Assembly (NCBI GenBank): GCA_951406725.2
Contig: OX597818.1
Span: forward strand, 3,038,001 to 3,102,000
Origin: Octopus vulgaris
Taxonomy: Eukaryota
Direction of reading: 5' to 3'
Length of the DNA: 64,000 bases
Positions 21,800 through 28,862 of the stretch are shown here, piece after piece. A program made the translations under genes and the position numbers. The first letter of the stretch is position 1. Each line of letters starts with the position of its first letter. The notes under the pieces are model-generated. The model was given only the letters and a program-made list of their open reading frames with translations, was not told where the DNA came from and ran no database searches.

Positions 21800-22205
21800 T
21801 TAAACTTAAATGTTGAAATGAATCGAACGGCTTTTGTGTGTTTCTTAAATGGCTTATAAACACCTCCCACGCTGCAATTGTTTTCGTTTCAGCACACGAT
21901 CTCAGATCAAATTACTTGCTATGCGAGTACATCTCCATAATATATATATATAATTATATATATATATATAATTTTTTCTTTCTCGCTAGACCACTGGTAA
22001 CTAAGAATTTTTCTCTGAATATTCTTGCTACCCTAAGATTTTAATTAATGATAACATATATATATATATATTGCATCTGGTCATATATTGAAGTGGATAC
22101 AACTACAACATTCACATCAGCAGCTAAAAGAACTAATAGACCTGTCATTATCGTCATCATCATTGTTTCCATCTTCTACTGCTACTTCCCCTTCTTCATC
22201 TTCTC

Positions 22206-22584
22206 TCCCCCTCCTCCTGCTGCTACTCCTAGTGGCCAAAGCCAAACATTCCATTCTACCTCACCAGTGACCCATCCCAACCACCCTTACTTTCTCCATA
22301 TCCCACCACCATAGCTCCACTAACAACTCAAGTACCATTGCTACTACTACTACTATCTCAGCCAGTGTACAAAATCAACCACTGCTCCTTCCCCCTCCTC
22401 CTGCTACTACTCCTAGTGGCCAAAGCCAAACATTCCATTCTACCTTGCCAGTGACCCATCCCAACCACCCTTACTTTCTCCATATCCCACCACCATAGCT
22501 CCACTAACAACTCAAGTACCATTGCTACTACTACTACTATCTCAGCCAGTGTACAAAATCAACCACTGCTCCTTTCCCCCTCCT
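22206..22584 (+). repeat. 184-bp tandem duplication upstream of CR1 ORF1
   Basis: agtggccaaagcc starts at 22231 and again at 22415; the two units differ by only a few bases. Confidence 0.9.
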
Positions 22585-22643
22585 CATTCAAGTCAAACAA
22601 TTCTAAATCTCAAGCTATTCACAATCCACTGCCCACATAAACG

Positions 22644-24003
22644 ATGACTGGTAATGGAAATCCACAGACTGCCAGCCCAGAGAGCAACACTTGCCTGGCC
22701 ACAGACATCATATTGAAAATCATCTCATCAACACAAAATCAAGATATAAAAAGTGTCTTGTCGAAATATGATATCAAACAGGAAAGTGGAGCAATATACA
22801 AAAATATCTTCACCAACTGTAAGTTTACGGATGTTAAAGAAAGCAGCAGCTTTCTTGAATGATGGTGTCCAAGTTGAGCTCACAAATCCAAACCTCACCA
22901 ACTGGATTATAGCAAGGATTGAAAACTTCCTCCCGGAGACTTGCAAAATGTGTGACAAACAGTACTGCATTACATTTGGCCAAAAACCAGCTTTGGCATG
23001 CTTCATCTGTGGACAAGGAATACACGAAGCGTGCTACTTAAAAAAGATAAATAACCACACCATTCCAGATATTCTAGGCCTACACTGGCTATGCAGTTAT
23101 TGTTCACCAAGGGCCACAATAATGAATGAACCTAGGACCCTACCACAGACAGGCCGTTCTAAACAGACATTGATTGGCGAAACTGACATGGCAAATAAAT
23201 CCTGCCACACACAGGCCATCCAAGTGCCTCTTGTAAATGACAAGAATGAAGACAATGACATGCAAACACCTACAAAACAAGAAACAGGAGATCCTGCAGA
23301 AAAAGACCAAACTTCCCACGAAAAGAAACAGATCCAGAGCAAACGCTCAAATGAAGAAAGGCCAGTATGTATCCATTACAGGCGCAACAAGTGCAAACAT
23401 GGTCTTTCAGGTACAGGGTGCATGTACAGTCACCCCAAACCATGCAGACCATATATCAACTTCGGTACTGATCGAAAAAAAGGATGCCAAAATGGCCGAG
23501 AATGTGAACTCCTTCACCCAAAGATGTGCCACAATTCGCTGAGAAAAAAAGAATGTTTTGGTGAGAATTGCAAATTTATGCACCGGAAGGGTACAATTCG
23601 CATAAAAACTACTGAACCCACACCACCAGGACCAAGCTCAGCAGGGTATGAAAACCATTTCCCAAAAATGCGGAACCCAGGTCATGGCTCAACAGTGAAT
23701 GAAAACCATGCTACTCAATTGCGTACATCAGCTGTAACAAACTCAAACTCGCAGAAATTCGATATAGTAATGAATGAAAGCAGTTTTTTAGGCATAATCT
23801 ACCAACTACAACAACAGCTGTACTCCATACAGACGACTCAGCAAAACCAGGCAACATTGATACAAAGGCTGATACCTGGACTTACAGGGCACATACAACA
23901 AATACAGACAGCCCAGCAGACCGAATATCCAGTCAGCACAGTCCCAGCAACTACAACAGTCTTGCCAACAATAGGGCAGATGTATCTGGTACAACAAGCA
24001 TAA
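22644..24003 (+). CDS. LINE ORF1: PHD finger + three CCCH zinc fingers + Q-rich tail; one apparent 1-nt insertion near 22840
   Basis: ORFs 22644-22862 and 22753-24003 join (FTDVKE-AAAFL) if one A is removed from gaaagca. PHD: CKMC...CFIC...HEAC...WLCSYC. CCCH fingers: CIHYRRNKCKH...CMYSH, CRPY...CQNGRECELLH, CHNSLRKKECFGENCKFMH. Confidence 0.85.
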
Positions 24004-26990
24004 TAACAGCAAATATCCAGGGTCTTTATCCGAAAACAAAACAGTGTAAAGTCCCTTTCTTGGAAGAATTAGCAACAGAAAACAACTCCAAAATAATTGG
24101 AATTACTGAAAGTCATCTCAACGAAAACATCCGCAACAGCGAAATCACAATCAATAGATTCAACATCTTCAGATGTGATAGACAAGGCAGATCCCATGGG
24201 GGCGTTATCATGTATATCCATGATACCTATGCATGCATAGAACTTGTCAATGAATCAAATGCCTACTGCAACTTGCTGTGCATAAAAATCATCCAACTTA
24301 ATACAGTTGTAACAATAATGTACAGACCGCCAAACAGCCCAACATTATCCTTCACTGAGCCACTGACGAAGCTCCAACAAATTCTGGGAAACATGGCAAG
24401 TCCAATGCCAGACATTATCCTCCTTGGTGACTTCAACTTCCCTAACATCATCTGGCCACATGGACACATACTAAAACTGGGGACAAAAGCTGAACAAATA
24501 CAGGCAGCCAAACTGTTGAAAGTCACAGAGAAATTATACCTCAAACAAATGATGACAGAAGCAACAAGAAATAATAATACGATCGACTTGGTTTTCACCA
24601 ACAACGAGGACACGCTATTTGACCTTCACTCAACCCCAACAATCCTTTCAGACCACAATATTATTGAAATGCATTTACACATTGGTAATGAGCCCAATGC
24701 CACAACTCTTAAACAAAAGGACATGCCAAAGCTATGCAGGTATGATTATCACCAGGCAAATTGGGAAACTATTAACAACCAGTTACAAATCATTGACTGG
24801 GATCTCTACCTTACTGGGCCAGATAAACACAAGAAATTCTTAAACAAGATCGAAGAAATATGTGAAAAAAATGTTCCTCTAAAGAAAACCAAGTCCACAA
24901 AAAAACCTGTACCACGGGAGCGAAAGATCCTGATGCGCAAAAGGTCAAGACTAAGAAACAAAACATCTAAGCTGACATCAAAACATGAATTACAGAAAGT
25001 CCTTGACCAAATATACAGATTAGAAGACAATCTAAAACAACACTATGATGAAGAACGTAACAATGCAGAAAAGAGAGCCATAGAAAACATCAAGAAAAAT
25101 CCAAAATGTTTCTACAGTTTTGCAAAGAAATACTCGAACACCAAGTCAACAATAGGACCTCTCCAGAGACAAAATGGGGATGTAGTGAATAACCCTATTG
25201 AAATGGCAGAAATGTTGGGTCAACAGTATGAAAGTGTCTTCAGTGAGCCATCTAAAACCATGAAGATCCATGACCCAGGAAAATTCTTCAAGGATATCGA
25301 CCATACTAAACCTACCCTATCCGACATTGATTTCAACCCAGAAGACATAGCAAGAGCCATAGACAAGCTCTCCATGCACTCGGCTGCGGGGCCTGACGGT
25401 TTCAATGCCATGATACTTAAAAACTGCAAGGTTCAATTGTCGAAACCCCTTTACATGATATGGAGGGAATCTATGGAGAATGGCAAAATACCAAATACAT
25501 ATAAAGAAGCACACATAACTCCAATACATAAAGGGGACAGCAAATCAAAACCAAAGAACTACCGACCAATCTCACTGACATCACACATTATCAATGTCTT
25601 CGAAAGAATAGTTCGTGGAAAACTGGTTGAGTTCCTGGAATCCAACAATCTGATGAATTGCAACCAGCATGGATTCAGGTTAGGTAGATCATGCCTTTCC
25701 CAACTACTGGCACACCATGACCAAATCCTAGAAAATCTAGAGAATGGATACAACACAGATGTTATCTACCTCGACTTTGCCAAGGCATTTGACAAGGTAG
25801 ATCATGGCATCCTGGGTCACAAACTTCGAAAGCTAGGAGTAGGAGGAAAAGTTGGTACATGGATACACGAGTTCCTTACAAATAGAACTCAAACAGTCAC
25901 TGTGAATGGAACCCATTCAACACCATCACCTGTGACCAGCAGTGTTCCTCAGGGTACAGTACTCGGCCCAATCCTGTTTCTCATCCTCATCTCTGACATA
26001 GATGAAGATACAACCAGCAACGTCTCATCCTTTGCTGATGACACCAGGGTCATGAGACAAATCAAAGACGAGGTGGATACAGAGGCCTTACAAAAGGACC
26101 TGACCACCATATATAAATGGCAGGAAACAAACAACATGTTGTTCAATGATAAGAAGTTTGAACTAATTCGCTACGGAACAGATCAAGATCTGAAAAATAC
26201 AACAAACTACAGAAACCCATCAGGACAACAAATAATGGAAAAACAGTATGTGAAAGATTTAGGCATCCACATGGGAACCAACCTAAAATTCAGAGAACAC
26301 CTTGACTCAGTCTGTCTTACTGCAAGAAAGTACAGCGGGTGGATCTTGCGCACCTTCAAATCAAGAGATACCTCAACAATGAAAACCCTCTGGAACAGTA
26401 TGATACTTCCGAGGATTGACTACTGTTCTCAGTTGTGGTCACCAACAACAAAGGGCCAACTATCTAAGATAGAATCGCTCCAAAGAAATTTTACCTCATA
26501 CTTCTCAGAAACGAGGGACCTGGACTATTGGCAAAGACTCAAAACCTTGAGGATGTACTCAATAGAAAGAAGATTTGAGCGATACCGAATTATATACATT
26601 TGGAAAATGATAGAGCAGAAGGTGCCAAACTTTGGTATCAAAACCTACCACTCACTGCGCCACGGAAGACGCTGCCAGCTGCCACCAATCAACAAAAAGG
26701 CTGGCCAGGCAGCAAAAACCCTGCGAGAATCAAGTCTGTTGGTTCGAGGAGCACAACTGTTCAACTCCATTCCGGTACATGTCAGAAATCTATCAGGATG
26801 CAGTGTGGAATCATTCAAATTGCAACTGGATAGATACTTAAGCACCATTAGAGATGAACCCCATCTCCCAGGATATACACAACGAGCACAAACTGACTCA
26901 AACTCGCTCCTACACATGTCAAAATTAAGCAGAGAATACAACCTGGCAACCACACCAGACTCTGAGGGTGGAGTCTTCGACTTGGCCTGA
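23778..26990 (+). CDS. LINE ORF2: APE endonuclease + reverse transcriptase; frame open from 23778, no ATG until 24210
   Basis: Motifs IITANIQGL (24000), [57 protein letters not shown]; no stop until 26988-26990. Confidence 0.95.
23784..23790 (+). promoter_or_regulatory. Candidate -1 ribosomal frameshift slippery heptamer T-TTT-TTA
   Basis: Correctly phased in ORF1 (AGT TTT TTA GGC). The -1 frame is ORF2 and is closed by TGA at 23775-23777, just upstream. Confidence 0.7.
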
Positions 26991-27105
26991 GCATGGACTC
27001 AAACCCAAATGAAATGAAATGAAAATGAAATATATATATATATATATGTACACATATATATATATATACATACATATCATCATCATCATCGTCGTTTAAC
27101 GTCCG

Positions 27106-27255: not shown

Positions 27256-28862
27256 CAGTTGCGGCCAAAATGTTCAGAATGGCATTGTTTTCGTCAGAAA
27301 AGTAAGTATAAGTTTTTATCAAAGTAGTTTTATATTCTATAATTTTCACAGACAATAAATACAATATTAATTGTTATTGTCTGAGATGTTGGTGTAATTT
27401 GAGAGGATAATACAAAAGTTATGGATGATTTAATGATTTACTGCAAAACCCATGGCGGCCACCAAAATTATCAGAACGGTTGAAAAAATAACAAAATAAT
27501 CAAAAATGACACAGAATACTGGAATTATTTAATATTTAGTGTGAAGCCCTTTAGCTTCAATCACACTCTGACATCTTCGACTGCATGAGGAAATTAAATT
27601 TTCAATTTTTTGCTGGGTGATCTTATTCCATTCTTCCTGAAGAGCATTCCATAATTGCTCAGTTGTTTTAGGATTTCTGGCTTTCGAACGTTCTCCTAGA
27701 ATATTCCATACGTTTTCAATAGGATTGAGATCTGGGCTTTGAGCAGGCCAATCCATACCAATAACCTTTCCAGCCTTGAGGAAGTTCATGGCCACCTTAG
27801 CCTTGTGACATGGGGCATTGTCCTGCATGAATATGGGTGGTCGCTTAGTTGAATTTCTCAGCACAGGCAAGACATGATCTTTTACAAGTTGTTTATAAAC
27901 TCCTGCATTTACCTTTCCATGTAATCGCACCAAAGGGCCCACACCATCTCCAGATATCAGCCCCCAAACCATGATACTTCCTCCACCGAATTTAACACTA
28001 GTCTTAAGGCATTTAGGCGACAATTTTTCACCTACTTTTCGACGAACGTACCTTTTCCCATCTGAGCCAAATAACATAAACTTAGATTCATCACTGAATT
28101 GCCATTTTTCTTGAGACCACAACACATGTTCGGTTGCAAAGGTAAGACAACACATTTTATTCTTGGGGCTGATCAGTGGCTTCACTGTAGATGCTCTTGC
28201 TTGTAGGTCATGTTTAACTAAACGACGAGACACAATTTTTTGAGATAAAGTTTTCTTCAATATAATGCTCATTTTCCGAGAAACAGCAGTAGCAGTTTTA
28301 AATCTGTCCTTTTTAACCAACTTTACCATAGCATGATCTTGTTCGTTTTTCTTGGCCTACCTGTAAACTTTCTTGCTTCACACGAACCACAATCATCGTA
28401 GACCTTAAGAATACCATGTACAACACTTTTTGACTTGTTAACAATAGATCCAATACTTAAATTATCCTTCCTTCGAAGCTTAATAATCTGCTGACGAATT
28501 GGTAACGGAGTAAGTGGCATTATATTAACAAAGTACACTGCAAATATTCATACTAATGTTTAGTAAACGAACCGTCATGTAAACAAATTCAAAACATTAG
28601 AGTTCGCCGGTTAAATATACTAAAACACTGAGTAAAAGCAACCGTTCTGATCATTTTGGCCGCCATGGGTTTTGCAGTAAATCACTAAATCATCCATAAC
28701 TTTTGTATTATCCTCTCAAATTACACCAAAATCTCAGGCAATAACAAATAATATCGTATTTATTGTCTGTGAAAATTATAGAATATAAAACAACTTTGAT
28801 AAAAAATTATATCTACTTTTCTGACGAAAACAATGGCGTTCTGAACATTTTGGCCGCCACTG
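27256..28862 (-). mobile_element. Tc1-family DNA transposon (DD34E) with long IR/DR-type TIRs and TA TSD
   Basis: ta|cagttgcggccaaaatgttcagaa ... ttctgaacattttggccgccactg|ta; TIRs ~225 bp (27256-27480, 28641-28862), each with an inner repeat of the terminal motif. Confidence 0.95.
27529..28520 (-). pseudogene. Tc1 transposase, frameshifted near 28330
   Basis: MPLTPLPIRQQII...GRPRK, then FSDESKF, FMQDNAPCH, SPDLNPIEN; 34 residues between the second D and the E. Confidence 0.9.

Follow-up and report, generated by a model that had tools for sequence, protein, structure and literature searches.

We analysed a 64,000-nucleotide (nt) stretch of the Octopus vulgaris genome (assembly GCA_951406725.2, contig OX597818.1, positions 3,038,001 to 3,102,000 of the forward strand; hereafter the window, numbered from its first letter) that contains a nearly full-length long interspersed nuclear element (LINE). 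The element has two overlapping open reading frames (ORFs), and our subject is how the protein of the second, ORF2p, is made from an RNA that begins with the first. We refer to the window's family as A, to a second family in the same genome as B, and to three families from a metagenome as C (L150/L151), D (L148) and E (L149). The features of the window copy are as follows:

~22066-27030, + strand: nearly full-length LINE, family A
22066-22643, + strand: 5' untranslated part; the window copy is 5'-truncated and other copies reach further
22644-24003, + strand: ORF1, ~452 amino acids in intact copies, with a PHD-like finger, three CCCH fingers, a coiled coil and a Q-rich tail
22942-23103, + strand: PHD-like finger (Pfam PHD E=0.01, short of the curated cut-off)
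23356-23601, + strand: three CCCH-type zinc fingers, the mark of this LINE group
23775-23777, + strand: TGA, the last stop of the ORF2 frame ahead of the overlap
23784-23790, + strand: slippery heptamer T TTT TTA, read as x-Phe-Leu in the ORF1 frame, then G
23785-23860, + strand: predicted coiled coil of the ORF1 protein (ORF1p), from its residue pattern, starting at the heptamer's Phe-Leu
23790-23999, + strand: dual-coding stretch, with the Q-rich ORF1 tail in frame 0 and a Met-free, T/S/N-rich linker in the -1 frame
24001-24003, + strand: TAA that ends ORF1, overlapping the first endonuclease codons (ATA ATA); family C is arranged likewise
24003-24656, + strand: APE-type endonuclease of ORF2 (Pfam PF03372 E=8e-7, PF14529 E=8e-13)
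25530-26189, + strand: reverse transcriptase (RT) of ORF2, which ends at 26990 (Pfam RVT_1 E=6e-29; L1 ORF2p and R2 structures matched by sequence)
27007-27030, + strand: 3' tail of short tandem repeats (TGAAA units), present at 6/6 examined 3' ends, the window copy's included

The ORF2 frame is the -1 frame of ORF1. It is open from 23778 to 26990 (1070 codons), and it opens six bases ahead of the heptamer, where ORF1 reads AGT TTT TTA GGC. The original prediction, made from the letters of the window, had proposed a retrovirus-like -1 frameshift at this heptamer, and each of its observations was confirmed: the position of the TGA, an overlap with ORF1 of 226 nt, the phase of T TTT TTA, the first ATG of the ORF2 frame at 24210, and the lack of any ATG, GTG or TTG upstream of 24000, which holds for CTG and ACG as well. 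The predicted sizes also agreed with ours, at ~452 amino acids for ORF1p and 382 + 1066 = 1448 amino acids for a fusion.

Family A is young, with 40 genomic matches that are 97-100% identical, and it is apparently transcribed. Of 30 copies that we fetched, 29 span the slippery site; the heptamer was kept in 28 of these, and the -1 frame was open from the TGA to the endonuclease in 22, with a stop or indel in six and one copy not scored. Seven of 27 copies carry a 51-nt in-frame duplication at 23636, between the fingers and the slippery site. The original prediction had named three features that would speak against it, namely an in-frame ATG upstream of the endonuclease, stops in the overlap and a missing heptamer, and the family as a whole has none of them. 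However, when we resampled the ORF1 tail with synonymous codons, the -1 frame stayed open 65% of the time (P=0.65), because the Q-rich tail seldom makes -1 frame stops, and the family A ORF1 contains four in-phase X XXY YYZ heptamers. We therefore rejected the open overlap as evidence from family A by itself: the overlap described in the original prediction is present, but within this family the pattern is not beyond chance.

We next turned to relatives of ORF1 at the protein level. Searching with a profile built on the CCCH region, we obtained 2,289 clusters (50% identity) at E<=0.001 and examined the best 150, one of which is labelled Mnemiopsis leidyi. Phe-Leu was present in 127 of the 137 relatives with at least 40 residues past the fingers, each from a separate 50%-identity cluster, compared with a mean of 25 and a maximum of 46 in shuffled sequences. 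For the flanking residues 125 relatives were scored, after removal of P0014, P0031 and P0083, in which the first Phe-Leu is not homologous, and addition of one with a short tail. The residue preceding Phe-Leu was never K, E, Q, M or W, which have no U-ending codon (0/125, against a background of 25%), and in 102 of 123 proteins, against a background of 23%, the codon of the following residue has G as its first base; with Asp and Glu set aside, a G-starting codon still follows in 34/55 (background 14%). Of 88 hand-picked relatives that we aligned, 86 have Phe and 83 have Leu, and neighbouring hydrophobic positions varied freely. From Phe-Leu onward the 125 relatives have a heptad-like pattern, with hydrophobic peaks at +0, 4, 7, 11, 15, 19 and 22 and almost no Pro or Gly for ~25 residues, which suggests that the coiled coil of ORF1p begins at the Phe-Leu of the heptamer. 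One pair of proteins, P0083/P0162, reads CCCH fingers, Y-F-F-R, linker and endonuclease in a single frame, as expected of a -1 product, and apparently derives from a copy with one extra base. In another, P0184 (three members), a single frame holds fingers, endonuclease and RT but not the motif; it may be a natural fusion or a copy that was rearranged. When ORF1 was used in word-indexed protein searches, only octopus proteins (three matches) were returned, and nothing among longer proteins, which is weak evidence. The protein data fit U or C before Phe equally well, and DNA was therefore needed.

A search of the octopus genome with the CCCH region gave 148 matches. We fetched 117 regions outside family A, nearly all of which belong to one family, B, whose ORF2 is 38% identical to that of family A. 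Genome searches with P0015 and P0126 led, by coordinates, to families A and B again, plus a few weak new places. Family B reads TCT TTT TTA in the phase of ORF1, 3 nt past the opening of the -1 frame; 110 of the 117 regions span the site, with 92-99% identity at each heptamer position. Among 74 scored copies the distance from heptamer to endonuclease was mostly 126 or 222 nt, and no stop occurred in 32/34 and 19/23 of these, respectively, whereas the 126 nt upstream of the heptamer held two to six stops in every one of the 74. The ORF1 of family B (L034 403-1749) shares the heptamer and differs in its domains, having another N-terminal domain (helical and, by eye, like Myb/SANT) together with five CCCH-like fingers, where family A has a PHD finger plus three. 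In one copy (L042 860-5179, - strand) two bases are missing at the T run, such that ORF1 and ORF2 form one 1439-codon frame; this is a single copy and probably a mutation.

A scan of one metagenome added five loci (L148-L152). Families C, D and E all carry TCT TTT TTA G at the site; the remaining locus, L152, has related fingers but neither Phe-Leu nor an endonuclease behind them. Families B-E are 34-50% identical in ORF2. Scans of viral and prokaryote collections found no DNA of relatives. The original prediction had proposed checking conservation across related families, and this comparison bore it out: T TTT TTA stands in the phase of ORF1 in every one of the five families for which DNA covers Phe-Leu, and past the heptamer no stop interrupts the -1 frame as far as the endonuclease in A, B, C and E and the contig end in D. 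The -1 frame enters the endonuclease in family C, where it runs for 853 codons, and in family E, where it runs for 327 codons to the contig end. No Met precedes the first endonuclease motifs in families A and C, in which the first Met lies at codons 142 and 105, respectively. In the 300 nt upstream of the heptamer there are six to nine -1 frame stops, and in four families the frame opens 3-9 nt before the heptamer.

Given x-Phe-Leu and the codon usage of each element, the chance of the heptamer codons was 0.006-0.04 per family and 1.3e-9 jointly, and the joint chance of an open -1 frame in five families was 3.6e-5. Family D is 67% identical to E in the fingers; without D the joint chances are ~4e-8 for the codons and 3.5e-4 for the open frame. 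Synonymous sites between the families are saturated: none of 33 invariant columns in ORF2 share one codon in four families, only two of 19 invariant columns in the fingers share a codon, and among three families 0/28 invariant Leu are all TTA and 1/16 invariant Phe are all TTT. Nucleotide conservation at the heptamer thus exceeds what the amino acids need. The feature is real, and when the families are taken together it lies far outside what chance would give.

We conclude that ORF2 is very probably made by programmed -1 ribosomal frameshifting at the conserved U UUU UUA, giving an ORF1-endonuclease-RT fusion; the heptamer, its phase and an open -1 linker are common to distant families, which supports the original prediction. 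Most ribosomes would finish ORF1p, with its zinc fingers, coiled coil and Q-rich tail. A minority would slip one base back at Phe-Leu, leaving F-L-R or F-F-R at the junction, and would read linker, endonuclease and RT as one protein of ~1450 amino acids. The fusion would keep the PHD and CCCH fingers and shed the ORF1 coiled coil, losing the oligomerisation helix because the coiled coil has its first turn at the slip site. The expected outcome is many ORF1p molecules per RT, with each RT carrying its own RNA-binding fingers. Slow decoding of UUA perhaps aids the shift, as work on HIV-1 (human immunodeficiency virus type 1) would suggest. More broadly, though with somewhat less assurance, we think it likely that a very large and old animal group of triple-CCCH LINEs, comprising up to ~2,300 ORF1 clusters at 50% identity from ctenophore to octopus, makes its RT as a Gag-Pol-like fusion through U UUU UUA, with fingers kept, coiled coil shed and no conserved RNA stimulator.

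Several observations weigh against frameshifting. Folding against shuffles revealed no stimulatory structure conserved across families A-E. In A and B the sequence after the heptamer folds no better than shuffles by minimum free energy (z -0.4 to +1.1), which also led us to reject as a stimulator the 5-base-pair hairpin of the original prediction; in families D and E a hairpin of ~-17 kcal/mol begins 4-8 nt past the heptamer (z -1.6 and -2.1), and family C has one at +26. The shift rate is probably low, because no 3' structure is conserved. The linker of family B carries an in-frame ATG in 68 of 69 scored copies, that of family E has an in-frame ATG (Met at codon 37) in addition to an overlapping TGATG at the ORF1 stop, and for one ORF2 relative (P0174) the gene call begins with a Met right where the endonuclease starts. 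Ten of the 137 long tails are without Phe-Leu; some of these are probably cut short, while a subgroup comprising P0006, P0010 and P0025, with P0014, keeps the coiled coil and seems truly to be without the preceding Phe-Leu. This subgroup may have changed its way of making ORF2p. The DNA comparison covers five families, or about four independent lineages, and the G that follows the heptamer in most relatives would fit a splice acceptor too.

That last point belongs to the competing explanation that fares best, although we consider it improbable: T6AG could be a conserved 3' splice site, with a minor spliced RNA in which the ORF2 frame is joined to a donor upstream in ORF1, or to the 5' end. Families A, C, D and E read TTTTTTAG at the site, which is acceptor-like, and an acceptor would also account for the opening of the frame at this point and for the pyrimidine before Phe. 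By contrast, family B keeps T6A yet has C, not G, as the next base in 96% of 110 copies, 21 of 123 proteins are without the G, and at three places where C would serve an acceptor equally, T is used by all five families. In three of four sequencing runs, which we guess to be of RNA, contigs cross the site without a joint, although contigs drop rare forms. None of the 40 genomic matches of family A starts at the AG; the nearest, L030, has non-element DNA upstream.

Termination and reinitiation at the ORF1 stop, as in SART1, would make the heptamer and overlap incidental, with ORF2 started from the AUA in UAAUA or from a nearby AUG, and we judge this to be slightly less probable again. In its favour, SART1 and L1 use such routes, with L1 reported to tolerate any sense codon at the ORF2 start (PMC1965478), and in families A and C the ORF1 stop falls exactly on the first endonuclease codons, as TAATA, one base from UAAUG. 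That position is expected, because the first Ile/Leu/Val/Met codons of the endonuclease create TAA or TGA in the frame of ORF1. An overlapping UAAUG or UGAUG was found in family E (UGAUG) and in a single one of the 30 family A copies (L026, with ATG at the codon at 24003); families A and C otherwise have UAAUA, and family B has no stop-start at all, its ORF1 ending either at +7, within a pair of Leu codons, or 47-59 nt upstream. A downstream structure of the SART1 type was likewise not found, the 120 nt after the family A stop having no stable fold (z -1.1). Moreover, reinitiation explains neither the nucleotide-level heptamer nor the open -1 linker. It could serve as a second, minor route to ORF2p. 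The original prediction had named reinitiation and coupling for other LINEs; it missed both the acceptor-like look of T6AG and the position of the TAATA stop.

The least probable explanation is that Phe-Leu is kept for protein reasons, as a helix cap and first coiled-coil turn, or that the T run acts by transcriptional slippage, with an internal start for ORF2: the S/D/N/T before and E/D after Phe-Leu do resemble the motif known as the helix capping box, and the linker ATGs of families B and E could provide starts, but protein constraint cannot fix codons where synonymous controls are saturated, and slippage RNAs would be copied back as T7, which occurs in none of 29 family A copies and, among 117 family B regions, in one compared with 83 with T6A (strict match) and five with T5.

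Other observations concern the anatomy of the element and its surroundings. ORF1 of the window copy is broken by one extra base near 22829, which is missing in 12 of 14 covering copies. The PHD match reached E<=0.01 in 34 of 89 aligned ORF1 relatives, the window's own hit being under the cut-off, and the top Atlas cluster for the CCCH region has zf-CCCH in 24% of its members, which we treat as a lead only. The 5' untranslated part contains two copies of a tandem repeat with a period of ~184 nt (22206-22585), and alignments suggest that copy number varies among family A members. A (TA)n tract adjoins three of the six examined 3' ends, including that of the window copy (22056-22072 and 27030-27050; the others are L155 and L158), which hints at a preference for microsatellite targets. 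Two public octopus gene models, P0003 and P0178 ('fission process 1' and 'PARP14-like'), contain pieces of the family A LINE and are probably annotation artefacts. Just downstream of the LINE lies a 275-codon frame (27529-28356, - strand), which we take from its motifs to resemble a Tc1/mariner transposase.

A PHD finger in ORF1 is common in the CR1/L2 lineages, and CR1 elements have a short tandem-repeat 3' tail and 5'-truncated copies. Family A shows the latter two features, with its TGAAA tail at all six examined ends and staggered 5' ends; its ORF2 has an APE endonuclease and RT, with no match to an RNase H or C-terminal knuckle in Pfam or in a PDB sequence search. We take the element to be CR1-like, a label assigned from anatomy and motifs rather than from an APE-RT tree. 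CR1-lineage LINEs with a PHD finger upstream of an APE-RT ORF2 are described in a survey of CR1/L2/Jockey elements (PMC4120745); an ORF1 with triple CCCH plus coiled coil is not among the types that its main text lists, nor do the terms 'CCCH', 'frameshift' and 'overlap' occur there. We found no report of frameshifting for CR1-like elements in the open literature; subscription papers and Repbase notes, which lay outside the search, may mention overlapping ORFs. What is described here is a known mechanism in a setting for which we found no description, a widespread animal LINE group with a triple-CCCH ORF1. How ORF2p is synthesised from a two-gene LINE RNA is a long-standing question, to which the tested cases, L1 and SART1, suggest reinitiation as the answer; if true, a frameshift of the retroviral kind that is conserved in a broad group of LINEs would be a third answer. 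The ratio of ORF1p to ORF2p would then be fixed by a simple mechanism, and true ORF2p would carry PHD and CCCH fingers that annotations miss. The HIV-type heptamer would also be available in hundreds of natural settings that apparently share no stimulator, and the young octopus family would suit direct tests.

Among the closest parallels is HIV-1 gag-pol, where U UUU UUA is a shown shift site that gives rise to both F-L-R and F-F-R and is sensitive to UUA tRNA supply, as reported in PMC6547452. The HIV-1 heptamer is identical, encodes Phe-Leu in frame 0 and is usually followed by G, and there too the structural protein is in frame 0, the RT is in the -1 frame and a long stretch of overlap codes in both. 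The octopus LINE differs in being an element without long terminal repeats (non-LTR) that encodes endonuclease and RT without protease or integrase and has no conserved stem-loop; the shift itself is inferred here from sequence. The alphavirus 6K/TF shift, also at U UUU UUA, is reported to have been found through an invariant 'FL', with 3' stimulators that differ widely between species (PMC2569925). It resembles the octopus case in having an in-phase X XXY YYZ that is kept at the nucleotide level where an open -1 frame has its 5' edge, and differs in being viral and yielding a short transframe protein, not a replicative enzyme. SART1 and human L1 likewise have a bicistronic LINE RNA with ORF2 levels below those of ORF1, and are described as making a separate ORF2p by stop-start coupling or reinitiation (PMC5972666, PMC1965478, PMC5009743); in the octopus element the overlap is long, families A and C are without an AUG, and the predicted product is a fusion. 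In the searched part of a 2016 review of frameshifting, HeT-A Gag is the sole non-LTR mention and LINE ORF2 is treated as a case of unusual initiation (PMC5009743). The statement in the original prediction that characterised LINEs use reinitiation or coupling holds for SART1 and L1 but not for TRE5-A and TRE3-A of Dictyostelium, for which a review figure legend states that a -1 frameshift is needed for ORF2 (PMC5911963). These are also APE-type non-LTR elements, with an amoeba host, a C-terminal zinc finger, an oligo(A) tail and targeting to tRNA genes; by contrast, the octopus LINE is an animal element in which ORF1 has PHD/CCCH fingers, the tail is made of TGAAA and many lineages keep the heptamer.

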